The notes beneath the pieces were generated by a model that did not search any database, was not told where the DNA came from, and was given only the letters and a program-made list of their open reading frames with translations. From Escherichia coli (GTDB lineage: Bacteria > Pseudomonadota > Gammaproteobacteria > Enterobacterales > Enterobacteriaceae), in assembly GCF_029227855.1 (NCBI RefSeq), contig NZ_CP074356.1: 64,000 bases of DNA, one strand, 5' to 3'. Both the position numbers and the translations under genes were made by a program. Numbering within the stretch: the first letter of the stretch is position 1; each line of letters opens with the position of its first letter. Below, piece after piece: positions 1 through 33,882 of this stretch.

Positions 1-672
1 CGAAAGCGTGGCTGGTTTGGCGACAATCTCCTGATGTTCGCTGACCAGATCCGGCGTCTTAACCTGCAACACCGCACGCGCAATAACCGGTTCGCTGTCC
101 GGCACTTTTTCCGTTTTACGCTCGACCTGCGGGCGCGCGTTCACACGGGTTAGTTCAGGTTTCGGGCGAGCTGGCTGTGTTGAGACGCGCGGCTGCGTCG
201 GTGCAATGGCATGTAAATCTTCACTGGCGTAAGTCGCCAGTCTGGCCTGCTGTTCAGGTTTCGCCTGCGGCAACTGACTGATCAGCTCCTGCAACTGCGG
301 CGGCAACGGCGTGAGTTCCTGCTGCTGCGTCGGGCGTTGCGCCGCGTTTTGCACCACCGCTTTCGTCAATTGCTGGATAACCGGCGATGTTGCGACGTTT
401 CGCGGCTGCGGCGTGTCCTGATGCGGCGCGGCAGGTTGCGGAAGTAACAGCGCCATTAGCGCCTGCATCGCCACCGGATCGTTCTCCTGCGGGCGCGTCG
501 CCTGTTGCTGACTGGTTTTTGCGCTATGAACGCGCTCCGCCACCGCCGCGACCGCCATTTTCGGCAGGGTAAACGCGGGCGCGTTTTCACCGCTCACCGG
601 CGGTAAAATATCCGCTTTCAGCGACGCTGTTTCCGCAAGCGTTCCGAGCGTGGCAAGCAATGCCGGATTCAT
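1..672 (-). CDS. lafE: hook-length control protein FliK-like (Flag-2 LafE), N-terminal part only; gene runs off the window start
   Basis: Hand translation of the minus strand from ATG at 672-670 (overlapping the TGA of the upstream fliT-like gene) is open for 224 codons to position 1 (MNPALLATLGTLAE...), Pro/Gln-rich as in FliK N-termini; not in the ORF track because no stop lies inside the window. Assignment by position after fliS/fliT and composition. Confidence 0.5.
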   Translation of the reverse strand, partial: MNPALLATLGTLAETASLKADILPPVSGENAPAFTLPKMAVAAVAERVHSAKTSQQQATRPQENDPVAMQALMALLLPQPAAPHQDTPQPRNVATSPVIQQLTKAVVQNAAQRPTQQQELTPLPPQLQELISQLPQAKPEQQARLATYASEDLHAIAPTQPRVSTQPARPKPELTRVNARPQVERKTEKVPDSEPVIARAVLQVKTPDLVSEHQEIVAKPATLS

Positions 673-980
673 GACTTCTCCGAAAGTAAATTAACAATTG
701 AGTAGGCGAGCACACCTTCCTGATGCCGCTGATGCTGTTCCATACGCGCTTTCAACACTTCTGCGCGCTGCTCGCGCCGTTTAATCAGGGCATTAAACGC
801 GCCGTACAGCTGTGCCTTCACCGCATCCAACTGCGCCGCGTCGGTTTCCGCCGCCGCGTAATCGTGAAACTGGCGCATCAACTGCTGATGCAGTGCCGGA
901 AGGCGTCGCCAGCGTTGCTTGTCGAGGGCTTCATTCATCGCCTCGACCAATGCGAAAAGTTGCCTGCGTTGTTTTTCCAT
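669..980 (-). CDS. lafD: FliT-like flagellar export chaperone (Flag-2 LafD), 103 aa
   Basis: ORF track; small helical protein immediately downstream of fliS in the fliD-fliS-fliT order; start/stop overlap with neighbours. Assignment mainly positional. Confidence 0.45.
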   Translation of the reverse strand: MEKQRRQLFALVEAMNEALDKQRWRRLPALHQQLMRQFHDYAAAETDAAQLDAVKAQLYGAFNALIKRREQRAEVLKARMEQHQRHQEGVLAYSIVNLLSEKS

Positions 981-984
981 CGTC

Positions 985-1377
985 TTAACCCAGCTTGCCC
1001 GAAAGCCCTTCCCAGCCTTCGCGCAGGTTGCTTAAGATCAGCATCACTTCATCGATTTTCTCTGCCGACAATTCGCCGCTGGCTTCATACAATCGGTAAA
1101 CGCAGTGGTCATAGAGTCGCGAAAGGTTCACCACCAGCTCGCCGCCAGTTTCAAACTCCAGCGAACTGGTGAGCGCATTGAGAATGTCGATGCATTTATT
1201 GATGCTCTGGGCTTTCTTCTCGAAACGCCGCCCTTCAATATGGCTTTTGGCGCGTTCCAGCTCGTCCATCAGGCCAGAAAACAGCACCAGCACCAGTTCC
1301 AGAGGCGATGCCGCCGCAGTACGCGCCGCGAGATCGATCTCTTTATATTGCGAATAGCCGTCCTGTACTTGGTACAT
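985..1377 (-). CDS. lafC: flagellin-specific chaperone FliS (Flag-2 LafC), 130 aa
   Basis: ORF track protein MYQVQDGYSQYKEIDLAARTAAASPLELVLVLF... matches the FliS family by eye; located after fliD. Confidence 0.85.
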   Translation of the reverse strand: MYQVQDGYSQYKEIDLAARTAAASPLELVLVLFSGLMDELERAKSHIEGRRFEKKAQSINKCIDILNALTSSLEFETGGELVVNLSRLYDHCVYRLYEASGELSAEKIDEVMLILSNLREGWEGLSGKLG

Positions 1378-1399: not shown

Positions 1400-2716
1400 T
1401 TACGCGAATGCCGCCATGCTGGCTTTCATGGTGTACACCTCGACCAGCGTGTTGGTGTACTCCTCGAGATAACGGTCGTAGTTGGCGTTATAGGTATCAG
1501 TAAGCTGATCGCCTTCGTCCTGAATTTTGCTCATCTGATCGTCAATGTTCTGCTGGCGCAGGGTGATGATGCCGTTGCTGGAGTCCGTGTAGGTGTTAAT
1601 CAGGTCGTCCATCTGCGCTACCATGCTGTTGTCGCCAACGAAAATAGAGGTCAGACCGTCAGGATTTTTCGCCATTTCGTCGTTGAACTGGTCGGAGTCA
1701 ATCTGTAAGTGGCCGTGAGAATCGAGGGTGATGCCATAGTCAACAATCGACACGCCGTTGTAGCTGACATGGGCGATGTCATCGAGCTGGTTCGCCAGTG
1801 AACTGAGTCCGGCGTCGCCTGCAAATACCCCGGCGCTGGTACTGTCATCACCGTGAGTGGTTAGCGAATCAACCGTATCGATCAGGGTGTTATAGGCATC
1901 GACAAAGGTCTGCACTTTCTCCTGGCTGGCGCTGGAATCTTCGCTAATGTTAAAGGTAGTGAGGTCGCTGTCAGAATCGCTGACTTCGGTGAAAGTCATG
2001 GTGACGCCGGGGATCACATCATCAAACGTATTGCTGCTGTTTGTGATCTCAGGCCCCGTGGCGCTGCCAAGATGAATAATCGCGTCCTGAGCGGAGGAAA
2101 CATCCGTGGCAACGGGCGCGCTGGTGCTATCGTTGCTGCCGTCATGCCCCGTTACGCTCACCGAAAATGCGCTCTGCGCCCCGGTGCTATCGGAGGTGAG
2201 CATAATCGTGGTGGTGCCGTCGGTTTTTACCAGTGCCGCCGACACGCCCGGATTGTCATCAGAGTCGTTAATCGCATTCACCAGCTCGCTGGCGTCGATA
2301 AAACCGTCGCCGTCACCGTTCTGATCTGCCGCCGACAGATCAATATCCATGGTGCTGTCGCCCATCGTCAGTTCAAAAGTGCCGGTGGCGGAAAAGGTGT
2401 CGTCGCCCATACTGAACGTGGTTTGCTGCCCCTGCGCCAGTTGCTCAACGAAAAACGAGTAGCTTCCCGCCTGTGCCTGCGAGTTAGCGGAAACGGTCGC
2501 CGAGTCATTATTGCTGGTGGCGGCAAACGTCACCGGGCCGTCAGTATCGCTGTTCAGCGCGTCAACGGCGCTCTGAAAATCGCTCAACGCTGAGCTGAGC
2601 GAGTCCAGGCCGCTGCTTTCAGCGTCCAGCTCGGTCTGCTTCTCCTGCAAATTTGCCGCCTGGGTGGCGACATCCGCATAAGCAATTTCTTGCGCAATGG
2701 TTCTTGGGTTAATCAT
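1400..2716 (-). CDS. lafB: filament cap protein FliD/HAP2 (Flag-2 LafB), 438 aa
   Basis: ORF track; N- and C-terminal axial-protein heptads, Ser/Thr/Asp-rich central domain; GGAG Shine-Dalgarno before ATG at 2716. Confidence 0.8.
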   Translation of the reverse strand: MINPRTIAQEIAYADVATQAANLQEKQTELDAESSGLDSLSSALSDFQSAVDALNSDTDGPVTFAATSNNDSATVSANSQAQAGSYSFFVEQLAQGQQTTFSMGDDTFSATGTFELTMGDSTMDIDLSAADQNGDGDGFIDASELVNAINDSDDNPGVSAALVKTDGTTTIMLTSDSTGAQSAFSVSVTGHDGSNDSTSAPVATDVSSAQDAIIHLGSATGPEITNSSNTFDDVIPGVTMTFTEVSDSDSDLTTFNISEDSSASQEKVQTFVDAYNTLIDTVDSLTTHGDDSTSAGVFAGDAGLSSLANQLDDIAHVSYNGVSIVDYGITLDSHGHLQIDSDQFNDEMAKNPDGLTSIFVGDNSMVAQMDDLINTYTDSSNGIITLRQQNIDDQMSKIQDEGDQLTDTYNANYDRYLEEYTNTLVEVYTMKASMAAFA

Positions 2717-2747: not shown

Positions 2748-2763
2748 GGCAAAAGGCGTGCCA
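2748..2763 (-). promoter_or_regulatory. candidate sigma54 (-24/-12) promoter for the lafB (fliD) operon
   Basis: Minus-strand sequence TGGCACGCCTTTTGCC matches TGGCACG-N4-TTGC; lies about 30 nt upstream of the lafB start codon. Confidence 0.5.
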
Positions 2764-3835: not shown

Positions 3836-4271
3836 GATACTGCTCCTTGGGATTAATCGTTTTCGTTTCGATACCCTGTAAAAACGACACCTCGGGAGCA
3901 AACTTAAAACCGCCGTTAAAATTTTTTCGCCACGTATTATCCGATGCCACTTTTAGCTAAAAAAAAACAGAGTTTAAATTCAGATAAAAAGATTATTAGC
4001 AATATCTGCCACATGGCCAGGTATCAAAATATGTCTTTATCAATTGCTTGATATAGTTAAGATTATCATCAATTACCGCGTTTTCTTATCAATGTACTGA
4101 TGCCAAAATTTACATTGCGTTGCAAATAGTACACATTTGGCTATTGTACCTGTCCTGTCATTTCGTTACATTTCCACGCTATATAGTGATTAAGAATAAT
4201 CTTATCACCATAAAATTATTAATTATCACGCAGAAAAATCATCTTCTCAGGGACGTATAAGACTGTGCTTT

Positions 4272-5165
4272 ATGCAAAGCACTATCAGGAAACATTTATC
4301 CCTTGCTAAGGTAAACTCAACTATGAGTATTATTATCAACAACTGGCGGATGGACCCGTCGCTTAATGCCTTAATACATTGCGAAACGGGTGAAACACGT
4401 CGTCTCGGCGAATACCATTTTATTTTGCTGGAAACATTAGCAAAAAATGCCGATGTGGTTTTATCGCGATCTTATTTATGTGCCGAAGTATGGAAGAACC
4501 GCATTGTCGGCGGTAACAGCCTGCCGACGGCGATCCACGCTCTGCGCGTTGCCATTGATGATGACGGCAAGCAACAGAACATTATTAAAACTATCCCGAA
4601 AAAAGGGTACCTGTGCAATAAAGAGTATGTGTCTTTGCCGGAGTCATCGCCTGCGGAAGCGCTGATTATTACCGACCAGATACAGGAAACAGTACCAGAA
4701 GAGATATCTTCTACAACACCGCCTGTGCCTGTTAGAAAAAAACATAAAGGACTGATGGGGTTAGCGTTGACCGCGGCTGTTATATTTATTGGCTCGACCG
4801 TGGGGTATTCACACTTGAAAAGTACACCTGACGCCCCGCAACTGGTAAAAGAGTCAATTAACAGTCCAAGAATAAAAATATTTCATCTTAGTTCTGGAAA
4901 AGAAAATAATTCCGCACCGTTACTGTCACAAACCCTCGCACCAGGAAAAGACAAACTCGATAATTTATTGTCAGCGCATAATATGACAATGACAACCTAT
5001 TATAAATATGTTCGTAACCGACTGGAGAGTGATATTGTTCTGCGCAACCAGTGCAATGGTAGCTGGCAATTAACCTTTAATGTGGATGAGTGGCAGAATA
5101 GCGATATTAATAGCGCGATGTATCAGAATTTAGAGAAGTTGTTAAATACTGTGCAGAAATGCTGA
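4272..5165 (+). CDS. ToxR/CadC-like membrane-anchored transcriptional regulator (winged-helix OmpR-type DNA-binding domain, one TM segment, periplasmic domain); possibly the Flag-2 lafZ
   Basis: ORF track; N-terminal region ...YLCAEVWKNRIVGGNSLPTAIHALRVAIDD... resembles trans_reg_C winged helix; hydrophobic stretch GLMGLALTAAVIFIGSTVGY; AT-rich gene and upstream region. The true start may be the ATG at 4323. Confidence 0.6.
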   Translation: MQSTIRKHLSLAKVNSTMSIIINNWRMDPSLNALIHCETGETRRLGEYHFILLETLAKNADVVLSRSYLCAEVWKNRIVGGNSLPTAIHALRVAIDDDGKQQNIIKTIPKKGYLCNKEYVSLPESSPAEALIITDQIQETVPEEISSTTPPVPVRKKHKGLMGLALTAAVIFIGSTVGYSHLKSTPDAPQLVKESINSPRIKIFHLSSGKENNSAPLLSQTLAPGKDKLDNLLSAHNMTMTTYYKYVRNRLESDIVLRNQCNGSWQLTFNVDEWQNSDINSAMYQNLEKLLNTVQKC

Positions 5166-5219: not shown

Positions 5220-6197
5220 TTACCCCAATAAATTCCTCACCGTCTGACTGGAAATTCGCGCCTGACCATTCACCGCCTGCAATAAAACTTGATAGTTATG
5301 ATTGGCGCTATCCAGCACGCCGCCGAGATTTTCCGACGCCTGCACGGCGCTTTCCGTTTGCGGGAAGCGCGACATGCCGTCGATCAACTGCCGCGCCTTT
5401 TCCTGCTGTACCGCCATCTGCACACGCTGCTGATTAATGCTTTCTAACGTCTGAGAAATCCCCGCTCCGCCCTGTTGCAGGCTTTGCACTAAGCGGTCCG
5501 CCTGCGACGGTTCGGCAAAGGTTTTTAGTGGCATAAACGCTGATTTATCACCATCGGTGCGCACGCTTAGGGTGCTTTCAATGTTGGGCCACTGTTTTTC
5601 AGTGGTGGAGAAACTTATACCATCGGCGTTTTGATGCATCTGCACGCCCACGCGGCGCAGGGCGTTGGTCAGCCGCGTCTGGTACTGCCCAGCGCTGTCA
5701 TCCTCAGACAGCATCACCGCCGAAAGCTGAGTCTGCCGCCCGTCAGAGACGCTGAACATGCGCGTTCCCGGCGTGGGATTGTGTACGAGATTCGCCAGAT
5801 CCGGCGAGTGAAAAGTCACCCGCGCTTCCCCCTGCAACACTGGCTGCAACTGGCGGTCCACCGCACCGCCGGAAAGCGCGGTGCGTTTGTCCAGCATCTG
5901 CATCAGCGCCGAACTCTGCGCCTGCCCGCCCTTACGCTGGCTATGACGATAATCGAGCAACTGCTGCTCCAGTTGCCCGAGATAGTGATCCGCCTGCTGC
6001 AACGTGGTGAGCTGGTCGTTAAGCTGCACGCTGTAACGCTGCGGGCGAGTGGTAATCAGCGGCGAGGCCGGATATTCACTCGCCGTCGCCGGGAGTTTTT
6101 GCCGCACCTCCTGAGTGGGCGCAACGGTTGACGACGATACCGCAACGCTATGCGCGCCGCCGGTGGCGAGTGACGAAGATGTAAATCCGACCTGCAT
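5220..6197 (-). CDS. hypothetical Flag-2 protein, 325 aa, with flagellar axial-protein-like C-terminus (possibly lafW)
   Basis: ORF track; C-terminus ...NHNYQVLLQAVNGQARISSQTVRNLLG resembles the C-terminal helix of flagellar export substrates; directly downstream of flgL in the same orientation. Confidence 0.4.
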   Translation of the reverse strand: MQVGFTSSSLATGGAHSVAVSSSTVAPTQEVRQKLPATASEYPASPLITTRPQRYSVQLNDQLTTLQQADHYLGQLEQQLLDYRHSQRKGGQAQSSALMQMLDKRTALSGGAVDRQLQPVLQGEARVTFHSPDLANLVHNPTPGTRMFSVSDGRQTQLSAVMLSEDDSAGQYQTRLTNALRRVGVQMHQNADGISFSTTEKQWPNIESTLSVRTDGDKSAFMPLKTFAEPSQADRLVQSLQQGGAGISQTLESINQQRVQMAVQQEKARQLIDGMSRFPQTESAVQASENLGGVLDSANHNYQVLLQAVNGQARISSQTVRNLLG

Positions 6198-6213: not shown

Positions 6214-7143
6214 TTAGAGAACGCTGAACAAATTCAACTCACTCACTTTCGAGTAAGTCTTGAGGGTAGCTTCCATTGCTACTTCCAGTCCGGTAAAGGT
6301 GATCGACGCCGGGCCGTAATCGAGATCCTGTAATGAACCAATCAGCTCATCATTAGAGGTAGAGATATCGGTCTGCGCATCGCTCAACATCGACATGGTG
6401 TTCTGCGTCTCGCCGAGCGACGCAATCGAGGCGTTGAGGTTATCCGAGGCGGTGTCCACCACATCAACGGCGTTCTGAATATCGCTCTGCACCTGCGGAT
6501 CGGCCGGGTCAACGTTTGGGTCTTGCAACTCCTGGGAGAGCGAATTGAGCGTGTTGAGCACATCTAAATTGCTGCCGAAGAAATCGCTCGCCGCCACGTT
6601 GGTATCCACTTCCACGCCGTTCGACACCGTGGTCTGGCGGTGGTCGCTGTTGCCCTGATAGCTGTAGCTATCGGTCACGCCGTCGCCGTCATCGTCCACC
6701 GCCACAATCGGCGGCTGATCGTTGATAGTGCCGCCAAACACGTAGTGCCCGTCTTCGTCCTGATAGTTCAGCGCCGCGACCATTGATTCGGTGAGCGACT
6801 CAATATCCTGCCCGAGACTTGCGAGCGAATCGGCGGTATTGGTGCCATTCGCCGCTTCCAGCAGGTCGTCGCGCACCGCCAGCAGGCTGTTGTTGACGCC
6901 ATCAAGGATTGATTCCTGCTGACTTAACCCCGCCGACGCGGAGTCGATATTGCTCTGATACTGCTCAATCGCCGACTGTTGGCGGTTCAACTGGGTGATG
7001 CGCGTGGCGGCGATCGGGTCATCCGACGGCTGCAAAATCTGCTTGCCGGTTGCCATCTGCTCGACCACATGCGCCAGATCGCCGGAGAGATTATTAAAAC
7101 TTTGCGTCATCGAGACGTAGGTTTGTTGGGTGGTTACTTGCAT
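6214..7143 (-). CDS. lfgL: hook-associated protein FlgL/HAP3 (Flag-2 LfgL)
   Basis: ORF track; start moved to the internal ATG (MQVTTQQTYVSM...) preceded by a GGGAG Shine-Dalgarno, 14 bp after the flgK stop. Confidence 0.8.
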   Translation of the reverse strand: MQVTTQQTYVSMTQSFNNLSGDLAHVVEQMATGKQILQPSDDPIAATRITQLNRQQSAIEQYQSNIDSASAGLSQQESILDGVNNSLLAVRDDLLEAANGTNTADSLASLGQDIESLTESMVAALNYQDEDGHYVFGGTINDQPPIVAVDDDGDGVTDSYSYQGNSDHRQTTVSNGVEVDTNVAASDFFGSNLDVLNTLNSLSQELQDPNVDPADPQVQSDIQNAVDVVDTASDNLNASIASLGETQNTMSMLSDAQTDISTSNDELIGSLQDLDYGPASITFTGLEVAMEATLKTYSKVSELNLFSVL

Positions 7144-7157
7144 TTTCGCGCTCCCGC

Positions 7158-8534
7158 TTAGCTGCACATTTCCAGCACCGAATCGAAAATCTCGGCCCCG
7201 GCGGAAATGACTTTCAGATTGGCTTCATAAATTTGTTGATAGGTGATCAGGTTAACCGCCTCTTCGTCCATGCTGACGCCGCTGACGCTGCTCTGCTGGT
7301 TTTGCGCTGCGGAATAGACATTGGACGCGGCATCGACTTCCGTCTGGTTTTGCTGGCTGTAAATGCCGATATTGCTGATGATTGACGAGCACGCCTGCCC
7401 GACCGTCACGCTGCCGAGGTTGGCTATTTCCAGCGGTTCGGTGGAGATATTGATCAGCGCCTGGAGGTTGTCGCTGTTGCCGCTTTCGTCCGGCGAACTG
7501 GAGAACGCCAGCTCATCGGCGGTGATATCCGGGTTAACGGTCAGCGGGCCATCGGCGTTGCTGGCGTCATAAATAAACAGCGGCTCGCCGGGGTTACCGT
7601 TGAGATCGTAGCCCTGCGCCAGCTGGTTGTTAACCGCATCGGCGAACTGCGACGCCATACTGTTGATGGTGTCGGTCAGCGGCGTCAGCACGTCGTTTTG
7701 ATAATCAAACAGTGCGCCTAATGAACCGCCGGTGTCGGTAGTCATCGTCGAGGTGGTGCCAGCGAAAGTCAGCGACATGGTCGGCGTGCCGTCGGCGTTG
7801 GTTTCCAGCTCGATGGTCGAGCTTTGCTGCCCGCTCACCAGCGGTTGACCGTTTTTCAGGGTAACGTTGTAGTTGCCCTGGTCGTCGATATTGACCTGCA
7901 CATCCATCATGCCGCTCAGTTCTTCCACCATCTGATCGCGGGCGTCGTACAGCGCGGAGGCGTTATCGCCGTTGGCTTCGGCCTGAGCGATTTGCTGGTT
8001 ATAGCTGGCGATGCCGCTGGTGAGCGTGTTGATTTGCGACACCATTGCCTGCTGCTGGCTGATGAGTTCCGTGCTTTGCGAGTCGATGTAATCCAGCGTG
8101 TTGTCGATACGCAGCGACAGCGCCCCGGCTTCGCTGATCACCTGCTCGCGCAGGGCGGAATCATCGGGGCTGGTGGTCGCTTCGTTAAGGGCGGCGAAGA
8201 AGTTATCGAACCCGCCGCTCAGGCTGCTGTTATCGTCGTTCAGTACCGCTTCCAGTTGCGTGAGATACCCCTGCTGGGTGCTGTAATAGCCGTAATCACT
8301 GGCGGCATACCACACCTGATTCACCTGATACTGGTTAGAGACGCGGCGAATGCTGTCGACCTGCACGCCGTTACCGGCGCTGTTCGGCGAACCACCGCTG
8401 GCGCCGATGGTGCTGATCTCCGCCACCTGGCGGGTGTAGCCCGTGGTCATGGCGTTGGCGGTGTTTTGCGCCGTGACGTTCAGCTCCACCTGCGCGGTTG
8501 ATGCGCCGCTGTAGCCGATGTTAATCATATCCAT
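7158..8534 (-). CDS. lfgK: hook-associated protein FlgK/HAP1 (Flag-2 LfgK)
   Basis: ORF track, 458 aa; axial-protein N-terminus (...GASTAQVELNVTAQNTANAMTTGY) and C-terminal heptads. Confidence 0.85.
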   Translation of the reverse strand: MDMINIGYSGASTAQVELNVTAQNTANAMTTGYTRQVAEISTIGASGGSPNSAGNGVQVDSIRRVSNQYQVNQVWYAASDYGYYSTQQGYLTQLEAVLNDDNSSLSGGFDNFFAALNEATTSPDDSALREQVISEAGALSLRIDNTLDYIDSQSTELISQQQAMVSQINTLTSGIASYNQQIAQAEANGDNASALYDARDQMVEELSGMMDVQVNIDDQGNYNVTLKNGQPLVSGQQSSTIELETNADGTPTMSLTFAGTTSTMTTDTGGSLGALFDYQNDVLTPLTDTINSMASQFADAVNNQLAQGYDLNGNPGEPLFIYDASNADGPLTVNPDITADELAFSSSPDESGNSDNLQALINISTEPLEIANLGSVTVGQACSSIISNIGIYSQQNQTEVDAASNVYSAAQNQQSSVSGVSMDEEAVNLITYQQIYEANLKVISAGAEIFDSVLEMCS

Positions 8535-8610
8535 GTTGGATCCTTACCGGTAAATCGTGCCGGTTAAAAGCGGCGTTAGGTTGGGGATTCTTAAGTGGGA
8601 GGTGGTGCCC

Positions 8611-10690: not shown

Positions 10691-10731
10691 GTTCTGCCTG
10701 TTTTAAATACAGTGAGTTATGCGCTTTTGTA

Positions 10732-10763: not shown

Positions 10764-10772
10764 CATTTCGCC

Positions 10773-21252: not shown

Positions 21253-21254
21253 GG

Positions 21255-23295: not shown

Positions 23296-23298
23296 GGG

Positions 23299-24309: not shown

Positions 24310-25933
24310 TGCTGGTGATCCATTGTCTGAGAACTTCGGCTACGCGATCGGTGTCGCTCATGGCCAGTTTTTGCAGGAACTCGAGTTTCACTTCGAGGCC
24401 GGAACTCTGGGACGGCAGGCTGTCATCGCCGGGCAGCGACGGCAGGTCGACGTTTTTGCGCTCCTCTTCCGGCATGGCAATCCACGGTTCGCTGACAGCT
24501 TCCGGTTCTGGTGTGATAACCGGCGCACGCACCGCCGTCAGGCGTTTCATTACCGGGCGCACCACAAAGAACAGCAACAACAGCGCCAGCAGGCCGCAGC
24601 CAATCAGGCGTACCCAGGCCAGCACGCTGTCATCTTTCCACAGCGGAATAATTGGTTCGACCGGCACCGCCTGCGGGACAAAGTTAAGCAGCGATAAGGT
24701 GAGATTGTCACCGCGCTGGACGTCGATCCCGGCGGCATTGTTCAGCAACGCGGTCAGTTGCGCAGTCTGCTCCGGCTTCCAGTTTTTCAGCGCCGGGGCG
24801 TTTTGATTGAGCACCACCGCCACGTTGAGGCGTTTCACCGCAAAACCAGGATGCTGAATATGCTGGACGCTGCGGTCGTAAGAGTAATCGCGCTTGCTTT
24901 CGCTGTGTTTGGATAACGCTTCCGGTGAGCGGTTTTCTTCCGTACCGTTGGTCATCTGATTCGCCGCAACTGGCGGACGGTTGCTGAGTGAACCGGGCAC
25001 GCCCATCGCCACCTGATTGGTGTCGCTGTCCAGCACGCTCTCTTCGCGGTTGATTTTCGGCGCGTCGCCGTAGTGTTCCTGGGTTTCGTCGATGGTACTG
25101 AGGTCGAGATCCGGCATCACGCTGACGCGGTAATTCCCCGTACCAACCAGCGAATCCAGCACGTTCGCCACGCTGGCGCGGGTTTTGTCCTGAATATCTT
25201 TGAGGATCTGATCGCGTTTACGGGTTGCGGCAGAAACCGCCTCGCCTGCGCCAATGCCGTCGGTCAGCAGATTTCCCGCCTGATCGACGACGCTGACTTT
25301 GCTGGCCTGTAGCCCCGGAATACTGCCGGACACCAGATGCATAATGGCGTTGACCTGGTCCATATTCAGCTTCGCGCCATAGTGCAGGCGCACCACTACC
25401 GAGGCGCTGTTTTGTGGCTCATCGCTGACCACAAACGAGCTTTCTTCGTTGAGCGCCAGATGCACCCGTGCGCTCTCCACCGCGTCCAGCGACATAATGC
25501 TCTGCGCCAGCTCCCCTTCGAGGCTGCGTTTGTAGCGCACGTTCTGCACGAACTGGCTGCTGCCGAGCACTTCGTCTTTGTCCATCAGCTCGTAGCCGCT
25601 GGGCAATATCGCCTGCACACCTTTGGCGGCAAGGGTCATGCGCGTTTTCGACAGTTCACCTTCCGGCACCAGTATCTGCCCGCTCTGCGGGTCGATGCGA
25701 TAGCTGAGCTTTTCGCCGTCCAGCACGGTGACAATCTGCGACACGGGCAGATTTTCCTGGCGTCCGTAGAGCGAGACGTAGCCGCGATTACCGGTCCACA
25801 GCACACTAACGATAATCGCCGTTGCCGCCACGGCAAGCCCCACTCCCGCCATCAACGCCCAGCGTTTGTTATCTGCGAGGCGCAGTCGAAACGCCGGAAA
25901 CGCCTGGGTTAACTTCTTTATTTGTGCATTCAT
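24287..25933 (-). CDS. lfiF: MS-ring protein FliF (Flag-2 LfiF)
   Basis: ORF track, 548 aa; N-terminal TM segment, FliF family. Confidence 0.9.
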   Translation of the reverse strand: MNAQIKKLTQAFPAFRLRLADNKRWALMAGVGLAVAATAIIVSVLWTGNRGYVSLYGRQENLPVSQIVTVLDGEKLSYRIDPQSGQILVPEGELSKTRMTLAAKGVQAILPSGYELMDKDEVLGSSQFVQNVRYKRSLEGELAQSIMSLDAVESARVHLALNEESSFVVSDEPQNSASVVVRLHYGAKLNMDQVNAIMHLVSGSIPGLQASKVSVVDQAGNLLTDGIGAGEAVSAATRKRDQILKDIQDKTRASVANVLDSLVGTGNYRVSVMPDLDLSTIDETQEHYGDAPKINREESVLDSDTNQVAMGVPGSLSNRPPVAANQMTNGTEENRSPEALSKHSESKRDYSYDRSVQHIQHPGFAVKRLNVAVVLNQNAPALKNWKPEQTAQLTALLNNAAGIDVQRGDNLTLSLLNFVPQAVPVEPIIPLWKDDSVLAWVRLIGCGLLALLLLFFVVRPVMKRLTAVRAPVITPEPEAVSEPWIAMPEEERKNVDLPSLPGDDSLPSQSSGLEVKLEFLQKLAMSDTDRVAEVLRQWITSNERIDNK

Positions 25934-25937
25934 AGGG

Positions 25938-26279
25938 TTAGATCGACATACTCATCAGATCGTTAAATCCGGTGGCGATTTTGTTGCGCACCTGCACCAG
26001 CGCGGAGAACGAGAGCGACGCCTGCTGGCTGGCGATCATCGCACCTGCCAGGTCATCACTTTTGCCCGTGTCGACAGCCGTTTGCTGCTGCTCTGCCACC
26101 TGCTGGAACTGGTCTACGTGACCGAGCGCGCCACTCATAATGCGGTTAAACGAAACGTCAGGATTGGTGGAACTGAAGGTCATGGCGGGCAGCACCGGCG
26201 CCTGGGCGTTGGCCTGCATCCGCTGCACGTCCTGCATGATTTGCGCCTGCATGGTGCTGTTGATTGTGGTAATGCTCAT
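25938..26279 (-). CDS. lfiE: hook-basal body protein FliE (Flag-2 LfiE)
   Basis: ORF track, 113 aa; position upstream of fliF; FliE-like C-terminus. Confidence 0.75.
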   Translation of the reverse strand: MSITTINSTMQAQIMQDVQRMQANAQAPVLPAMTFSSTNPDVSFNRIMSGALGHVDQFQQVAEQQQTAVDTGKSDDLAGAMIASQQASLSFSALVQVRNKIATGFNDLMSMSI

Positions 26280-26293
26280 TTTTAACTTCCGGG

Positions 26294-27280
26294 TCAGGAG
26301 AAAACTTCGATACCTTGCTTGCGCATGGAGGCCAGTCGATAGCGCAGTGCGCGCGGGGTAATGCCTAACAGGTTGGCGATTTTGCTGCGGTTGCCCTGAT
26401 ATTTACGCATCAGGTCGGCGATATATTGATATTGCGCGCTTCGTCCGTGCTGGCCTAAATCGCAGGTTTCAGCAATGTGGACGGCGGGCTGAACAGGCCA
26501 TTGCAGTTCGCTGCGGTCGGCAACGTCCGTTTCCGGCAGGCCTAAGGCGTCCGGGTAAATTACGCCGTCGCGGTTTAAAATCATTCCCCGCTGAATGGCG
26601 TTCTCCAGCTGGCGCACGTTGCCGGGCCAGCGGTAATTGAGCAGCGCCCGGCGGGTAGATTCTGAAAGGGTGATATTTTTCACCAGCACCGTGGAGTATT
26701 TTTTAATAAATGACTCTGCCAGCGGAATAATATCGTTCAGACGTTCACGCAGCGGCGGCATGGTAATAGGGATTACCGCAAGACGATAATAGAGATCTTC
26801 ACGAAAACGCCCTTCGGCGACTTCCTGCTCAAGGTTTTTATTGGTACAGGCAATCAGGCGAAAATTGAGTTTAATTTGTCGGTTGCTGCCTAATCGCTCA
26901 ACCTGCTGTTCCTGCAATACGCGTAATATTTTGACCTGTAGCGCCAGCGGCATATCGCCAATTTCATCGAGCAATAAGGAGCCGTTATTCGCCAGTTCCA
27001 TTTTTCCTGGCACGCTGGCAATTGCGCCGGTAAATGCACCTTTGTCGTAGCCAAATAAGGTAGATTCCAGCATATTTTCCGGGATCGCCGCGCAGTTCAC
27101 GCCGACATAGGGTGCGCTTTCATTTTCACCAAAGGCTACGGTGTGAATATATTTTGCCACGCACTCTTTGCCCGCGCCGGTTTCGCCCTGAATGAGCACC
27201 GGCACGTTAAAGGCGGCGACACGCTTTGCCAGAGTAAAAGCGTTAATGCTGGAAGCGGCAGTTGCAATAAGTTCAGACAT
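26294..27280 (-). CDS. lafK: sigma54-dependent transcriptional activator without receiver domain (LafK-like)
   Basis: ORF track, 328 aa; AAA+ sigma54-interaction domain (GETGAGKE Walker A, GAFTGA-type loop) and C-terminal HTH; divergent from the fliM operon. Confidence 0.85.
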   Translation of the reverse strand: MSELIATAASSINAFTLAKRVAAFNVPVLIQGETGAGKECVAKYIHTVAFGENESAPYVGVNCAAIPENMLESTLFGYDKGAFTGAIASVPGKMELANNGSLLLDEIGDMPLALQVKILRVLQEQQVERLGSNRQIKLNFRLIACTNKNLEQEVAEGRFREDLYYRLAVIPITMPPLRERLNDIIPLAESFIKKYSTVLVKNITLSESTRRALLNYRWPGNVRQLENAIQRGMILNRDGVIYPDALGLPETDVADRSELQWPVQPAVHIAETCDLGQHGRSAQYQYIADLMRKYQGNRSKIANLLGITPRALRYRLASMRKQGIEVFS

Positions 27281-27652: not shown

Positions 27653-28504
27653 ATGCTGAAGTACAGTAAAACGCCAGGCATCTTTAAATTAGAAGGTAAT
27701 CGGCTCGGACGCCCCTACCATCGCCTGCCGACCCTGTTTACGGGGAATTTTGACGTGATTGATTCGCATCTGGGCAGCTACTTTCTCAAAAAGCATCGCA
27801 GCAATATCACCTTAAAAAAGATTGGCTGCGAAATGGATATTATTAATAAAAACGCCGAACTGATGGTTTCCCAGGTCGGGCATCTGGCGTTTGATATTGA
27901 TCGCTCCTTGCTGTTAATGCTGCTGGGCAATTTTTATGGTCTGGAGTCGTCTCTTGAAGAGGCGAAAGCCCATAACGGGTTGCCGACCAAAACCGAAACG
28001 CGTTTAAAAAACCGTCTGGCGCTGGATATCTGCACGCTGATATTTAATCTGCAAACCTCCGGTATTGCGCTGAAATTAAAACTGGACAGCAGCACGGTGA
28101 TTACCCACTGGGCGTATCAATTAACCTTTACCCTTGCGGACGATGAAGAGAGCAGTTTTCGTATTTTGCTCGACGACGCCCACACCGATTTTATTTTGAA
28201 TCTGATCCGCCACAGCGAGCACAGTAAACCGCAGCAGGTGGCGAAATCCGTTAATAAACCGGCCCTGATTAAAGAAATCATCCGCTCCCTGCCGCTGACC
28301 CTGAACGTCAAAATCGCCGAACTGTCGCTGAATGTCGCGGATCTCACGCAGATAAAAGCCGGGGATATTTTACCCATCTCGCTGGGAGAAACGTTCCCGG
28401 TGGCGATTGGGCAATCTGAATTATTTAGCGCCCTGATTGTGGAAGACAAAGACAAACTGTTTTTGTCGGAGCTGGCGGGCAAAAATGAGAATAGCCATGA
28501 GTAA
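27653..28504 (+). CDS. lfiM: flagellar switch protein FliM-like (Flag-2 LfiM), 283 aa
   Basis: ORF track; precedes fliN with an 8-bp overlap; C-terminal SpoA-like segment; shorter than E. coli FliM. Confidence 0.65.
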   Translation: MLKYSKTPGIFKLEGNRLGRPYHRLPTLFTGNFDVIDSHLGSYFLKKHRSNITLKKIGCEMDIINKNAELMVSQVGHLAFDIDRSLLLMLLGNFYGLESSLEEAKAHNGLPTKTETRLKNRLALDICTLIFNLQTSGIALKLKLDSSTVITHWAYQLTFTLADDEESSFRILLDDAHTDFILNLIRHSEHSKPQQVAKSVNKPALIKEIIRSLPLTLNVKIAELSLNVADLTQIKAGDILPISLGETFPVAIGQSELFSALIVEDKDKLFLSELAGKNENSHE

Positions 28505-28868
28505 GCAAGAAGATATTTTAGCCGGGGATTTTGGCCTCACCGATGAAGTTGCGCCTGTCGCGAAATCCGCCGACGCTGAAACGCTGGTCACCCGCCTGGA
28601 AGACCGCTTTTCCGACTCGATGACGCTGTTGAAACGCATTCCGGTGACCTTAACGCTGGAAGTGTCGTCGGTGGAAATTATGTTAGCCGACCTGCTAAAC
28701 ATCGACGACGACACGGTGATTGAGCTGGATAAACTCGCCGGGGAGCCGCTGGATATTAAAGTGAACAATATCCTGCTGGGCAAAGCAGAAGTGGTGGTGG
28801 TCAACGAGAAGTACGGCCTGCGCGTGCTGGAGTTTAACACCCGCGATATCAACGACCTGGCACCATGA
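28497..28868 (+). CDS. lfiN: flagellar switch protein FliN (Flag-2 LfiN), 123 aa
   Basis: ORF track (28437-28868); start set at ATG 28497 (MSKQEDILAG...); SpoA domain ...VELDKLAGEPLDIKVNNILLGKAEVVVVNEKYGLRV. Confidence 0.8.
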   Translation: MSKQEDILAGDFGLTDEVAPVAKSADAETLVTRLEDRFSDSMTLLKRIPVTLTLEVSSVEIMLADLLNIDDDTVIELDKLAGEPLDIKVNNILLGKAEVVVVNEKYGLRVLEFNTRDINDLAP

Positions 28869-29617
28869 AACGCCGCACTCAACTGACGCTCGGCCTTGGG
28901 CTGCTGGCGCTTGCGCCGCTGGCGTTAGCCCAGGGTGGCGATATTGCGCTGCTTAACGTGGTCACCCACGGCAACACTCAGGAGTACAGCGTCAAAATCC
29001 AGGTGCTGATTCTGATGACCCTCGTCGGTTTGCTGCCGACGATGGTGCTGATGATGACCTGCTTTACGCGCTTTATTATCGTGCTGTCGCTGCTGCGCCA
29101 GGCGCTGGGGCTGCAACAAACGCCGCCAAACCGCATTCTGATTGGTATTGCGCTCTCCCTCACCATGCTGGTGATGCGCCCTATTTGGCTCAATATTTAC
29201 GACCACGCGGTGGTGCCGTTTGAAAACGATCAGATTACCCTAACCGATGCGTTAAACACCGCCGCGACGCCGCTGAAACGCTTTATGCTGGCGCAGACCG
29301 ACAAAAAAGCGATGGCGCAAATCATGACCATCGGCGGCGCGAAGGGCAATGCCGCCGACCAGGATCTCACGATTGTGGTGCCTGCCTATGTGTTGAGCGA
29401 ACTGAAAACCGCTTTCCAGATTGGCTTTATGATTTACATCCCGTTTCTGGTTATCGACCTGATTGTCGCCAGCGTACTGATGGCGATGGGGATGATGATG
29501 CTGTCGCCGCTGATTGTTTCGCTGCCCTTTAAACTGATGCTGTTTGTGCTGATCGACGGCTGGTCGCTGACCATCGGCACGCTCACCACCAGCATTCGCG
29601 GGCTGGGGCTGGGCTGA
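28865..29617 (+). CDS. lfiP: export apparatus protein FliP (Flag-2 LfiP)
   Basis: ORF track, 250 aa; signal peptide plus conserved FliP transmembrane regions. Confidence 0.9.
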   Translation: MKRRTQLTLGLGLLALAPLALAQGGDIALLNVVTHGNTQEYSVKIQVLILMTLVGLLPTMVLMMTCFTRFIIVLSLLRQALGLQQTPPNRILIGIALSLTMLVMRPIWLNIYDHAVVPFENDQITLTDALNTAATPLKRFMLAQTDKKAMAQIMTIGGAKGNAADQDLTIVVPAYVLSELKTAFQIGFMIYIPFLVIDLIVASVLMAMGMMMLSPLIVSLPFKLMLFVLIDGWSLTIGTLTTSIRGLGLG

Positions 29618-29619
29618 TT

Positions 29620-29892
29620 ATGTTGACCGTAGACGTAGCCGCCGACATTGTCGCCAGCGGCATTAAAGTAGTGATTTTGCTGGTTTCGGTACTGGTAGTG
29701 CCAAGCTTGCTGGTTGGCCTGCTGGTGAGCGTGTTCCAGGCGGTGACGCAGATTAACGAACAGACCCTGAGTTTTTTGCCGAGGCTGATTGTCACGCTGG
29801 TGGTGCTGGGCGTGTGCGGTAAATGGATGATTATCCAGTTGCATGATCTGTGCATTCATCTGTTTACCCAGGCCGCCCTGCTGGTGCATTAA
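29620..29892 (+). CDS. lfiQ: export apparatus protein FliQ (Flag-2 LfiQ)
   Basis: ORF track, 90 aa, two TM helices; between fliP and fliR. Confidence 0.85.
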   Translation: MLTVDVAADIVASGIKVVILLVSVLVVPSLLVGLLVSVFQAVTQINEQTLSFLPRLIVTLVVLGVCGKWMIIQLHDLCIHLFTQAALLVH

Positions 29893-29893
29893 G

Positions 29894-30676
29894 ATGCGCA
29901 CAAGCGACGTTACGCAACTGATGGATCTGGCGCTGGGGCTGTGGTTTCCCTTCGTGCGCATTATGGCGTTTCTGCGCTATGTGCCGGTGCTGGATAACAG
30001 CGCCCTGACCGTGCGCGTGCGGATTATTTTGTCGCTGGCGCTGGCAATCATCATCACGCCGTTGATCCCCCATCCCATTCCCCACGATCTGCTTTCACTC
30101 AACAGCCTGATCCTGACGGTGGAGCAAATTTTATGGGGCATGTTGTTCGGGCTGATGTTTCAGTTTCTGTTTCTCGCGCTACAACTGGCCGGACAAATTC
30201 TCTCGTTCAATATGGGGATGAGCATGGCGGTGATGAACGACCCGAGCAGCGGCGCATCGACCACCGTGCTGGCGGAGTTAATCAACGTCTATGCGATCCT
30301 GCTGTTTTTTGCCATGGACGGGCATCTGCTGCTGGTAAGCGTGCTGTATAAGGGCTTCACCTACTGGCCGATTGGTAACGCGCTGCATCCGCAAACCCTG
30401 CGCACCATCGCGCTGGCCTTTAGCTGGGTGCTGGCGTCCGCATCACTGCTGGCGCTGCCGACCACCTTCATCATGCTGATTGTGCAGGGCTGCTTTGGCC
30501 TGCTCAACCGCATCGCGCCGCCGCTGAACCTCTTTTCGCTCGGCTTTCCCATCAACATGCTGGCGGGGCTGGTTTGCTTTGCCACCCTGCTCTACAACCT
30601 GCCGGATCACTATCTGCATCTGGCGAATTTTGTGTTGCAGCAACTCGACGCGCTGAAAGGTCACTATGGCGGATAG
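29894..30676 (+). CDS. lfiR: export apparatus protein FliR (Flag-2 LfiR)
   Basis: ORF track (29843-30676); start at ATG 29894 immediately after the fliQ stop; polytopic membrane protein. Confidence 0.85.
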   Translation: MRTSDVTQLMDLALGLWFPFVRIMAFLRYVPVLDNSALTVRVRIILSLALAIIITPLIPHPIPHDLLSLNSLILTVEQILWGMLFGLMFQFLFLALQLAGQILSFNMGMSMAVMNDPSSGASTTVLAELINVYAILLFFAMDGHLLLVSVLYKGFTYWPIGNALHPQTLRTIALAFSWVLASASLLALPTTFIMLIVQGCFGLLNRIAPPLNLFSLGFPINMLAGLVCFATLLYNLPDHYLHLANFVLQQLDALKGHYGG

Positions 30677-31805
30677 CAGCAGCGAAGAAAAAACAGAGAA
30701 ACCCTCGGCGCAAAAGCTGCGTAAAGCGCGTGAAGAGGGGCAACTGCCGCGCTCGAAGGATATGGGGCTGGCAGCGAGCCTGTTTGCAGCGTTTGTGGTG
30801 ATCTCCAGCAGTTTTCCGTGGTATGCCGATTTTGTGCGCGAGAGTTTTATCAGCGTGCATCAGTACGCGCAGGAGATTAATAACCCGCAGGTGATCGGTC
30901 AGTTTCTGCGCCACCACCTGTTAATTCTCGGCAAGTTTATCCTTACGTTGCTGCCGATGCCCGCCGCCGCGCTGCTCTCTTCGCTGGTGCCGGGCGGCTG
31001 GCTGTTTCTGCCGAAAAAAATCCTCCCGGATTTCAGCAAAATTAGCCCGTTAAAAGGCATTGGGCGTCTGTTTTCCAGTGAACATCTGGCGGAAACGGGA
31101 AAGATGACGGTGAAGTCTGCCGTGGTGCTGGTGATGCTGTGGGTAAGCCTGCGCAATAACTTTGCCGCCTTTCTCGGCCTGCAGGCGCTGCCGTTCAAAC
31201 TGGCGATGAATGACGGTTTGTCGCTCTACGCCAGCGTGATGCGCAACTTTGTCATCCTGTTTATTTTCTTTGCGCTTCTCGACGTGCCGCTGGCGAAAGC
31301 CCTGTTCACCAAAGGGCTGAAGATGACCAAACAAGAACTGAAAGAAGAGTACAAAAATCAGGAAGGCAAGCCGGAAGTGAAGGCGCGCGTGCGGCGGCTG
31401 CAACGGCAGCTGGCGATGGGGCAAATTCGCAAAGTGGTGCCAAAGGCCAACGTGGTGATCACCAACCCGACCCACTACGCCGTGGCGTTGCAGTATGACC
31501 AGTCGCGTGCCGCCGCGCCGTTTGTGGTGGCGAAAGGCACCGATGAAATCGCCCTCTATATTCGCCAGGTCGCTGCTGAAAGTCAGGTGGAAGTGGTCGA
31601 GTTCCCGCGGCTGGCGCGCTCGGTTTACTATACCACTCAGGTGAATCAGCAAATTCCTTTTCAGCTTTACCGGGCTATCGCCCACGTTCTGACCTACGTC
31701 CTGCAAATGAAACACTGGCGCGAGGGCGCACAGCCGCGCCCGGCCCTGAACAGACATATTTCCATTCCCAAAGAGGTGCTTAAACTGGATGGCGAAAACA
31801 ACTAA
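30666..31805 (+). CDS. lfhB: export apparatus protein FlhB (Flag-2 LfhB)
   Basis: ORF track, 379 aa; conserved NPTH autocleavage motif (…VVITNPTHYAVAL…). Confidence 0.9.
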   Translation: MADSSSEEKTEKPSAQKLRKAREEGQLPRSKDMGLAASLFAAFVVISSSFPWYADFVRESFISVHQYAQEINNPQVIGQFLRHHLLILGKFILTLLPMPAAALLSSLVPGGWLFLPKKILPDFSKISPLKGIGRLFSSEHLAETGKMTVKSAVVLVMLWVSLRNNFAAFLGLQALPFKLAMNDGLSLYASVMRNFVILFIFFALLDVPLAKALFTKGLKMTKQELKEEYKNQEGKPEVKARVRRLQRQLAMGQIRKVVPKANVVITNPTHYAVALQYDQSRAAAPFVVAKGTDEIALYIRQVAAESQVEVVEFPRLARSVYYTTQVNQQIPFQLYRAIAHVLTYVLQMKHWREGAQPRPALNRHISIPKEVLKLDGENN

Positions 31806-33882
31806 ATCGTTCCTCGCGCTGCTGCGCGGCGGCAATCTCGGCGTGCCGCTGGTCATTCTATGCATTCTGGCAATGGTTATTCTGCCGCTGCCGCCTGCGC
31901 TGCTGGATATTCTGTTCACCTTCAACATTGTGCTGGCGGTGATGGTGCTGCTGGTGGCGGTGTCAGCGAAAAGGCCGCTGGAATTCAGCCTGTTCCCGAC
32001 CATTTTGCTGATCACCACCTTAATGCGCCTGACGCTCAACGTTGCTTCTACGCGCGTGGTGTTGCTGCACGGGCATCTCGGCGCGGGCGCGGCGGGTAAG
32101 GTGATTGAGTCATTTGGTCAGGTGGTGATTGGCGGCAACTTTGTCGTCGGCTTCGTGGTGTTTATCATCCTGATGATCATCAACTTTATCGTCGTCACCA
32201 AAGGGGCCGAGCGTATTTCCGAGGTTTCTGCCCGCTTTACCTTAGACGCGATGCCTGGCAAACAGATGGCGATTGACGCCGATCTTAACGCCGGGTTGAT
32301 CAACCAGGCGCAGGCGCAAACCCGGCGCAAAGATGTTGCCAGCGAGGCCGATTTCTACGGCGCGATGGACGGGGCATCGAAGTTTGTGCGCGGGGATGCC
32401 ATCGCCGGGATGATGATTCTGGCGATCAACCTGATCGGCGGCGTCTGTATCGGGATCTTCAAATACAACCTGAGCGCCGACGCCGCCTTCCAGCAGTATG
32501 TACTGATGACCATCGGCGACGGGCTGGTGGCGCAGATCCCTTCTCTGCTGCTCTCCACCGCAGCGGCGATTATCGTCACCCGCGTCAGCGACAACGGCGA
32601 TATCGCCCATGATGTGCGCCACCAGCTGCTGGCAAGCCCGTCGGTGCTCTACACCGCCACCGGGATCATGTTTGTGCTGGCGGTTGTGCCGGGGATGCCG
32701 CATCTGCCGTTTTTGCTGTTCAGCGCCCTGCTTGGTTTTACCGGCTGGCGGATGAGCAAACGCCCGCAGGTGGCGGAGGCGGAAGAGAAAAGCCTCGAAA
32801 CACTGACCCGAACCATCACCGAAACCAGCGAGCAACAGGTCAGTTGGGAAACTATTCCGCTGATCGAGCCCATCAGCTTAAGCCTCGGCTACAAGCTGGT
32901 GGCGCTGGTGGACAAAGCACAGGGTAACCCGCTCACCCAGCGGATTCGCGGCGTGCGGCAGGTGATTTCTGACGGCAACGGCGTGCTGCTGCCGGAGATC
33001 CGCATTCGGGAAAACTTCCGCCTCAAGCCCAGCCAGTACGCCATTTTCATCAATGGCATTAAGGCTGATGAAGCGGATATTCCGGCGGATAAACTGATGG
33101 CCCTGCCCTCCAGCGAAACCTACGGCGAGATTGACGGCGTGCTGGGGAACGACCCGGCGTACGGGATGCCGGTGACCTGGATCCAGCCCGCGCAGAAAGC
33201 GAAGGCGCTGAATATGGGGTATCAGGTGATCGACAGCGCCAGCGTGATTGCCACCCATGTGAACAAGATTGTCCGCAGCTATATTCCTGATTTGTTTAAC
33301 TATGATGACATCACGCAGTTGCATAACCGTTTGTCGTCGATGGCACCGCGCCTGGCGGAAGATTTGAGCGCGGCGCTCAATTACAGCCAATTGCTGAAAG
33401 TGTACCGGGCGCTGCTGACCGAAGGCGTTTCCCTGCGCGATATTGTCACCATCGCCACCGTGCTGGTCGCCAGTAGTGCGGTGACCAAAGATCATATTCT
33501 GCTGGCGGCAGATGTGCGCCTGGCGCTGAGGCGCAGCATTACCCATCCGTTCGTTCGCAAGCAGGAGCTGACGGTGTATACGCTGAATAATGAGCTGGAA
33601 AATCTGCTGACCAACGTAGTGAATCAAGCGCAACAGGCCGGCAAAGTGATGCTCGACAGTGTGCCGGTGGACCCGAATATGCTTAACCAGTTCCAGAGCA
33701 CGATGCCGCAGGTAAAAGAGCAGATGAAAGCGGCGGGGAAAGACCCGGTGCTGCTGGTGCCGCCGCAACTGCATCCATTGCTGGCGCGCTATGCAAGGTT
33801 GTTTGCGCCGGGGCTGCATGTGCTGTCGTATAACGAAGTGCCGGATGAGCTGGAGTTGAAGATTATGGGGGCGCTGAGTTGA
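31789..33882 (+). CDS. lfhA: export apparatus protein FlhA (Flag-2 LfhA), full length
   Basis: ORF track, 697 aa; FlhA family N-terminal TM region and cytoplasmic domain. Confidence 0.9.
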   Translation: MAKTTKSFLALLRGGNLGVPLVILCILAMVILPLPPALLDILFTFNIVLAVMVLLVAVSAKRPLEFSLFPTILLITTLMRLTLNVASTRVVLLHGHLGAGAAGKVIESFGQVVIGGNFVVGFVVFIILMIINFIVVTKGAERISEVSARFTLDAMPGKQMAIDADLNAGLINQAQAQTRRKDVASEADFYGAMDGASKFVRGDAIAGMMILAINLIGGVCIGIFKYNLSADAAFQQYVLMTIGDGLVAQIPSLLLSTAAAIIVTRVSDNGDIAHDVRHQLLASPSVLYTATGIMFVLAVVPGMPHLPFLLFSALLGFTGWRMSKRPQVAEAEEKSLETLTRTITETSEQQVSWETIPLIEPISLSLGYKLVALVDKAQGNPLTQRIRGVRQVISDGNGVLLPEIRIRENFRLKPSQYAIFINGIKADEADIPADKLMALPSSETYGEIDGVLGNDPAYGMPVTWIQPAQKAKALNMGYQVIDSASVIATHVNKIVRSYIPDLFNYDDITQLHNRLSSMAPRLAEDLSAALNYSQLLKVYRALLTEGVSLRDIVTIATVLVASSAVTKDHILLAADVRLALRRSITHPFVRKQELTVYTLNNELENLLTNVVNQAQQAGKVMLDSVPVDPNMLNQFQSTMPQVKEQMKAAGKDPVLLVPPQLHPLLARYARLFAPGLHVLSYNEVPDELELKIMGALS

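Follow-up and report, generated by a model that had tools for sequence, protein, structure and literature searches.

The Flag-2 locus of enteroaggregative Escherichia coli 042, a second flagellar gene cluster, was reportedly described by Ren et al. in 2005. Comparable sets are the Laf systems of Vibrio parahaemolyticus and Aeromonas hydrophila and the flag-2 loci of Plesiomonas shigelloides and Yersinia enterocolitica, each of which is likewise a separate, full flagellar set, and their homology to E. coli Flag-2 is known from the literature (PMC6993521, PMC3032704). Like E. coli Flag-2, these lateral systems follow a LafK (sigma-54)/LafS (sigma-28) logic and have neither flhDC nor che genes in the cluster. 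They differ from it in being experimentally functional in swarming, which E. coli Flag-2 is not known to be. Among 100 E. coli strains, De Maayer et al. encountered flag-2 in 24 and an lfhA/lafU scar in the other 76, and they reported all 39 conserved genes in ~78% of enterobacterial flag-2 loci (PMC6993521). Here we describe a Flag-2 locus in a stretch of 64,000 nucleotides from E. coli (assembly GCF_029227855.1, contig NZ_CP074356.1), referred to below as the window.

Positions 1-33882 of the window are, with near certainty, the chromosomal Flag-2 (lateral-type, second) flagellar gene cluster of E. coli. It is equally near certain that Flag-2 is an ancestral second cluster of the lateral-flagella kind, here at its standard E. 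coli site. Judging from the sequence, we put at roughly 0.6 the probability that the locus is, where intact, a conditionally expressed functional system kept under purifying selection, a figure that includes its identity as Flag-2.

Identity and gene content of the locus

The identification follows from a DNA identity of ~96.5% with the Flag-2 locus of 042, in the same gene order, from the flanks on the yafL side and from the mapping of the K-12 deletion scar. The 042 locus (NC_017626.1, 284682-323159) occupies the same site and bears the same gene names, and RefSeq annotates the region in both 042 and JNEC-KY178, the nearest complete genome, as a second set of flagellar genes with lafA, motA and lafU at its end. 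After lfhA the window continues with hicB, yafL, dpaA, yafJ, gmhA and fadE; the dinB side of the locus lies beyond the window and was seen in relatives only. Between rayT and dinB, K-12 MG1655 retains only two adjacent pseudogenes, lfhA (1713 bp) and lafU (756 bp). The K-12 junction corresponds to a deletion of positions 9367-44182 of the JNEC-KY178 locus with a 12-bp overlap, so that in window terms the sequence from the window start to ~32169 is missing from K-12. The Flag-2 markers that are absent from Flag-1, namely lafK, lafW, lafZ and the lateral flagellin LafA, were all found. A preliminary description of this DNA, made from its letters alone, had called the locus Flag-2-like and had stated that K-12 keeps only truncated lfhA and lafU remnants; the 042 alignment, the gene order and the site bear out the former, and MG1655 the latter.

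Every annotated 042 Flag-2 gene was translated and searched against the window by tblastn. From lfhA through lafD each gave one full-length alignment, at 93.5-100% protein identity. The exceptions were lafE, which is cut by the window edge (residues 1-224 of 353), and the frameshifted lfgC of 042 itself, which aligned in two frames. Positions 1-33882 contain 37 complete Flag-2 genes and the first 224 codons of lafE, and all 37 complete coding sequences translate without an internal stop or frameshift. Single full-length alignments, plus family matches, were obtained for all 28 genes by which membership of Flag-2 is judged. Within the third gene cluster (lafW, Z, A, B, C, D, E, F, S, T and U), the genes from lafW through lafD are unbroken, lafE runs into the window edge, and lafF, lafS, lafT and lafU fall outside the window.

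Family models support most of these assignments. LafA scored 664 bits against NF033376, "lateral flagellin LafA" (cut-off 440), and 281 bits against a second lateral-flagellin model, NF038071, below its cut-off of 365. FlgC scored 132 bits against TIGR01395 (cut-off 102), and a further 14 proteins (FliS, FlgM, FliJ, FliE, FlgL, FlgK, FlgI, FlgH, FlgG, FlgF, FlgE, FliI, FliH and FliF) exceeded curated NCBIfam or Pfam cut-offs. FlhA, FlhB, FliN and FliQ had the expected family as best match at scores slightly under the cut-off. NCBIfam gave no match for LafD, LafW, LafV, LfgN or the N-terminal part of LafE, and a Pfam run on LafD, LafW and LafV returned nothing significant; the labels fliT for lafD, fliK-like for the lafE N-terminal part and flgN, like the names lafW and lafV, therefore come from synteny and RefSeq naming only. 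Characteristic motifs include NPTH at residue 267 of FlhB and the P-loop AGSGVGKS of FliI, in addition to those of LafK described below. The coding content comprises the export gate (LfhAB, LfiPQR), the C-ring (LfiGMN), the MS-ring, the ATPase complex, rod, hook, L and P rings, junction proteins, cap, chaperones and the lateral flagellin LafA.

These results agree with the gene list of the preliminary description, whose named genes are all present, with roles backed by NCBIfam or Pfam apart from the three labels just given, and with its reading of the open reading frames (ORFs) as free of frameshifts and premature stops. The alignment to the published 042 locus that it had proposed as a check is the one reported above. 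It had passed over five genes: lafZ, lafW, lafV, a GT2 glycosyltransferase and a TagD-like cytidylyltransferase. Its "apparently complete" is upheld as far as the genes inside the window are concerned, all of which are intact; completeness of the whole locus is not something that the window can show.

Three of the genes passed over, those encoding LafV, the GT2 glycosyltransferase and the TagD-like enzyme, lie in variable region 1 (VR1) between lfgN and lfiJ, where a Flag-2 locus is expected to carry them. The glycosyltransferase has a GT2 N-terminal domain and a weak TagB/F-like C-terminal domain. By their sequences the three form a predicted flagellin-modification cassette, and a GT2/TagD/LafV cassette has already been described in VR1 of Flag-2 loci (PMC6993521).

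Comparison with strain 042 and distribution in E. coli

The window carries the common form of the locus, without the RelE/HTH toxin-antitoxin pair that in 042 separates lafW and lafZ. Strain 042 alone also has a private 2-bp insertion that frameshifts lfgC, which RefSeq flags as "frameshifted", whereas lfgC in the window is an intact ORF of 143 codons; both the 042 defect and the intact window gene had been correctly given in the preliminary description. In addition, 042 has rayT after lfhA, where the window has an orphan hicB, and longer spacers than the window between lfgF and lfgG, lfgG and lfgH, and lfgJ and lfgK. Strains W, Crooks, EC958, 2/0, O178:H19 2012C-4431, A41 and E148 resemble the window: lfgC is unbroken, lafW and lafZ are not separated by a toxin-antitoxin pair, and the conserved genes are intact; for W and Crooks (PMC3032704) and for the ST131 strain EC958 (PMC4637896) the intact lfgC and the missing pair are published. 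Strain 2/0 differs in carrying extra VR1 genes, and O178:H19, A41 and E148 in carrying hicAB and dinJ-yafQ nearby.

Of 5426 complete E. coli genomes, 1265 contain at least 80% of window positions 1-25000, and 4209 have at least a partial match to that segment. The lfgC frameshift allele of 042 occurs in 042 alone, that is, in 1 of 1100 genomes with that part of lfgC. Intactness was judged from NCBI annotation in five complete genomes, picked from a list with an even spread. In four of these (2/0, O178:H19 2012C-4431, A41 and E148) all Flag-2 genes were intact, whereas in the fifth, MB22, an IS5-associated deletion has removed the stretch from lafS to yafQ; ISKpn26 (IS5-like) abuts the lafS fragment at 2018-3141 of NZ_CP073974.1, and lafT and lafU are left intact. 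This is a second, independent route of Flag-2 loss, unlike the classical lfhA'/lafU' scar.

Because the frameshift allele is private to 042 and most sampled copies are unbroken, an intact lfgC in an intact locus is the usual state of Flag-2 in the E. coli genomes that carry it. The preliminary description had flagged the intact lfgC as a contrast to 042; with four of the five sampled loci intact and intact copies in print, that contrast loses its interest. The locus, its distribution, its gene content including the modification cassette, and copies with an intact lfgC have all been published before. The earlier reading had the identity right but overstated the significance, and the question of completeness stays open.

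Purifying selection on the locus

The ratio of nonsynonymous to synonymous substitution rates (dN/dS) was estimated by the Nei-Gojobori method on the 37 window genes concatenated. It was 0.069 against 042 (dS 0.125) and 0.058 against 2/0 (dS 0.21). Since the dS of the locus is close to that of the flanking core genes yafL and dpaA, the data fit vertical inheritance, and they fit purifying selection that has been kept up, not a relic that died long ago. For lafA, dN/dS is 0.01-0.02. LafA is identical (WP_000949083.1) in 042, 2/0, O178:H19 and A41, and the window protein differs by one residue.

Promoter motifs and a candidate regulatory cascade

The sigma-54 pattern GGCAC-N5-TTGC matched three times in the 64 kb against 1.26 expected, and all three matches are intergenic and point at the adjoining operon, lying upstream of lafB, lfgB and lafV. 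The lafB and lafV sites are kept in all five other genomes compared; at lfgB the exact pattern is present in 042 and 2/0 as well, with a different spacer. A sigma-28-like motif, T[AT]AAG-N14-16-YCGYTTT, occurs at three sites in the window, upstream of lafA, lfgK and lfgM only, these being the sites from which the motif was derived. Across six genomes the -35 and -10 elements of these sites are invariant and substitutions are confined to the spacers. The canonical FliA consensus of E. coli (TAAAG-N13-16-GCCGATAA) had near-matches inside genes only.

Two regulators are encoded within the locus. LafK, a sigma-54 activator, has its Walker A motif at residue 32 and GAFTGA at residue 81; its AAA+ domain begins at the N-terminus, and it has no receiver domain. 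In LafZ an OmpR/CadC-type winged helix precedes a single hydrophobic segment, a layout like that of ToxR. The parts of a cascade that are present and conserved are LafK, LfgM and the promoter-like motifs; LafS is encoded outside the window. In the order that we propose, LafK, lacking a receiver domain, would activate transcription from the sigma-54 promoters that precede lfgB, lafB and lafV. Once the hook-basal body is finished, the anti-sigma factor LfgM would be exported, and its export would release the sigma-28 factor LafS, encoded just outside the window. LafS would then transcribe lafA, lfgKL-lafW and lfgMN from the sigma-28-like promoters, and LafT and LafU, both likewise encoded outside the window, would form the stator. 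We infer that such a LafK/sigma-54 to LafS/sigma-28 cascade would mirror the published lateral systems.

Chemotactic control of the Flag-2 motor is doubtful, because no che genes are found in the locus. LfiM (27653-28504) starts MLKYSKTPGIFKLEG..., and nothing in it obviously corresponds to LSQAEIDALL, the motif with which E. coli FliM binds CheY at its N-terminus.

The nearest clone

The nearest complete genome, JNEC-KY178 (NZ_AP045174.1), is ~99.95% identical over the window (99.9-100% by part) and has the same flanks and gene content. Its gene layout places lafF, lafS, lafT and lafU past the window start, which is where the preliminary description had expected the sigma-28 and motor genes, and its lafF, lafS and lafT are intact. 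Polarised with outgroups in a comparison with nine or ten genomes, four derived changes are private to the window: an inserted T at 4216 in the lafA-lafZ intergenic region, LafW A30E (6109), LfhA A328V (32771) and a 15-bp in-frame deletion in the glycosyltransferase gene at 18572, between CAGGCGATC repeats. Exact-protein look-ups gave no record of the LafW of the window, and for its LafB they gave only contigs identical to JNEC-KY178 and others less closely related.

Feature table and neighbouring sequences

The features of positions 1-33882 are collected in Table 1.

Table 1. Genes and promoter-like motifs of the Flag-2 locus, in window coordinates.
Feature	Position	Strand	Evidence or remark
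lafE, FliK-type hook-length control, codons 1-224 of 353	1..672	-	95.5% to 042 LafE; RefSeq name; no family match
lafD, FliT position, 103 aa	669..980	-	full length, 95.1% to 042; label from synteny only
lafC, FliS export chaperone	985..1377	-	TIGR00208, 79 bits, over cut-off
lafB, FliD filament cap	1400..2716	-	NF005955, 1e-44; full length against 042
sigma-54 -24/-12 motif GGCAC-N5-TTGC upstream of lafB	2749..2762	-	kept in 5 other genomes
lafA, lateral flagellin, 304 aa	2921..3835	-	NF033376, 664 bits
sigma-28-like motif TTAAGTTT-N11-GTCGTTTT upstream of lafA	3881..3907	-	invariant -35/-10; post hoc motif
lafZ, ToxR/CadC-like membrane-anchored winged-helix regulator	4323..5165	+	hydrophobic segment near residues 143-162
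lafW, Flag-2-specific, hook-associated-protein-like; window-private A30E	5220..6197	-	
lfgL (6214-7143) and lfgK (7158-8534), hook-filament junction proteins	6214..8534	-	TIGR02550, TIGR02492, over cut-off
sigma-28-like motif TTAAGAAT-N12-GCCGCTTT upstream of lfgK	8567..8594	-	
lfgJ, lfgI, lfgH, lfgG, lfgF, lfgE, lfgD, lfgC (14261-14692) and lfgB, rod/rings/hook operon	8611..15030	-	
sigma-54 motif GGCAC-N5-TTGC upstream of lfgB	15068..15081	-	exact pattern also in 042, 2/0
lfgA (15112-15849), lfgM, anti-sigma-28 (15930-16205), and lfgN (16218-16646)	15112..16646	+	TIGR03170, TIGR03824; lfgN named by RefSeq only
sigma-28-like motif TAAAGTTT-N12-ACCGCTTT upstream of lfgM	15864..15891	+	
sigma-54 motif upstream of lafV	16725..16738	+	
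VR1: lafV (16774-17703, lysine-N-methylase-like) and 823-aa glycosyltransferase (17810-20281)	16774..20281	+	PMC6993521
VR1: TagD-like glycerol-3-phosphate cytidylyltransferase	20411..20815	-	TIGR01518, 112 bits, under cut-off of 165
lfiJ, lfiI, lfiH, lfiG, lfiF, lfiE and lafK (26294-27280)	20818..27280	-	
lfiM, lfiN, lfiP, lfiQ, lfiR, lfhB and lfhA, C-ring and export gate	27653..33882	+	lfhA with window-private A328V

The G+C content of the Flag-2 region is ~0.54-0.61, as against ~0.49-0.53 in the adjoining core genes (34000-42000), with the AT-rich regulatory regions lafA-lafZ (~0.46) and lafK-lfiM (~0.50) as exceptions. The orphan hicB antitoxin gene (33885-34314) follows lfhA; the hicA toxin gene, which is present there in O178:H19, A41 and E148, is missing in the window, ~380 bp being replaced by 83 bp. 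At 35057-35280 the dinJ-yafQ pair is absent, as in 042; it stands between yafL and dpaA in K-12, O178:H19, A41 and E148.

Positions 41800-64000 are a type VI secretion island. It contains degraded transposase genes of the ISAs1 family (~41.8-43.1 kb), a small ORF (43484-43861), an Rhs core protein gene (43861-48360) running into a low-GC stretch (GC ~0.40 at 42-44 kb), and genes for VgrG (48436-50577) and Hcp (50787-51305), followed by tssB, C, E, F and G, tagH, tssJ, K and L and the start of tssH. Relative to JNEC-KY178, the window has four single-nucleotide polymorphisms (SNPs) clustered in a 16-bp stretch inside the Rhs gene (46830-46845), which look like a short recombination tract, and a (CAGAGT)n repeat in tssH at 63110 that differs in length by 6 bp. 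In the 64 kb, Rfam detected no RNA family and ARAGORN no transfer RNA, aspV included; a repeat search of the window turned up short, chance-level repeats only.

Functional interpretation

The reading that we favour, a conditionally expressed system that functions where it is intact, has several points against it. The literature searched contains no E. coli Flag-2 shown to produce flagella. Strain EC958 made no detectable LafA and was non-motile when fliC was mutated, motility coming from Flag-1 only (PMC4637896), and the swarming of W and Crooks was not specific to Flag-2 (PMC3032704). MotY(L) is required in V. parahaemolyticus and Maf-5 in A. hydrophila, and E. coli Flag-2 has neither (PMC3032704); among the ORFs of positions 1-33882, each of which is assigned another function, no MotY-like or Maf-like gene was found. 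Some 76% of E. coli strains have deleted Flag-2 (PMC6993521). Neither a sigma-54 nor a sigma-28 motif was found upstream of lfiM or lafK, and the count of sigma-28-like sites is no independent test. Further points come from the nearest clone. JNEC-KY178 has a premature stop in lafU, the MotB-type stator gene, at codon 33 (W33*; TGG to TGA, locus positions 9423-9425; a Trp codon in 042), ahead of the membrane helix that bears the conserved Asp. This stop is also present in two independently assembled runs, SRR14933785 and SRR18105866, which do not differ from JNEC-KY178 over 19.4 and 11.5 kb, so it is not a sequencing error. Low-level UGA readthrough by tRNA-Trp occurs in E. coli, and at lafU codon 33 it would restore the original residue. 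In JNEC-KY178, lfhB is also frameshifted, by a private 1-bp deletion, and LafW, LfhA and the glycosyltransferase carry changes that are private to the window.

These observations allow the locus to be ORF-intact in the window and yet to lack working motility, either through a lafU stop as in the nearest clone or as a silent cluster in early decay; intact ORFs are not the same as function. The silence of LafA in EC958 and the further, independent IS5-mediated loss in MB22 speak for this alternative, as do the defects of JNEC-KY178 and the private deletion and nonsynonymous changes of the window. It has a substantial chance of being right, though well short of an even one. The lafU stop was found in just 1 of 1074 complete genomes; lafU is intact in the next-nearest relatives (98.6-99.2% identical), as are both lafT and lafU in 2/0, O178:H19, A41 and E148. 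Because lfhB is frameshifted in JNEC-KY178 and intact in the window, the lineages are separate; the polarised differences show the window to be a separate member of the JNEC-KY178 clone, and a shared lafU stop is unproven, the odds that its source genome has it being roughly even. A long-term dN/dS of 0.06 also speaks against prolonged neutrality. Relaxed selection specific to Flag-2 in the recent changes of the clone was tested for and rejected, as the isolated SNPs between the window and JNEC-KY178 elsewhere (vgrG, tssC, tssG) are all nonsynonymous too. Alternatively, the cluster may be kept for a role other than locomotion, such as adhesion, invasion or type III export of non-flagellar cargo. 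Structural and export genes are under purifying selection though no E. coli motility phenotype is known (PMC4637896), LafA is the same protein in four genomes, and such roles have been suggested for Y. enterocolitica Flag-2 and for VR2 cargo genes (PMC6993521). Against this, non-flagellar cargo has left no sign in the window, where all ORFs of positions 1-33882 have flagellar or flagellin-modification functions, and rod, hook, ring and junction genes are conserved equally, as a rotating organelle would predict; this role has only a slim chance of being the right one.

A conditionally expressed, functional locus remains our preferred reading. A more specific form of it, in which E. coli Flag-2 is a working second flagellar system induced under particular conditions by a signal perhaps sensed by the ToxR-like LafZ, is put forward tentatively, and we consider it rather unlikely as it stands. 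It is proposed because dN/dS is ~0.06, because promoter elements are conserved while their spacers drift, and because intact loci are common.

Taken together, the signal of selection and the conservation of promoter elements speak against a dead relic, and the lafU stop and lfhB frameshift of the nearest clone illustrate how Flag-2 is lost by single strains. As a discovery the window locus matters little; its value is as supporting data on the role of Flag-2 in E. coli. If lafU is intact in the strain from which the window comes, such a strain could demonstrate a working Flag-2.

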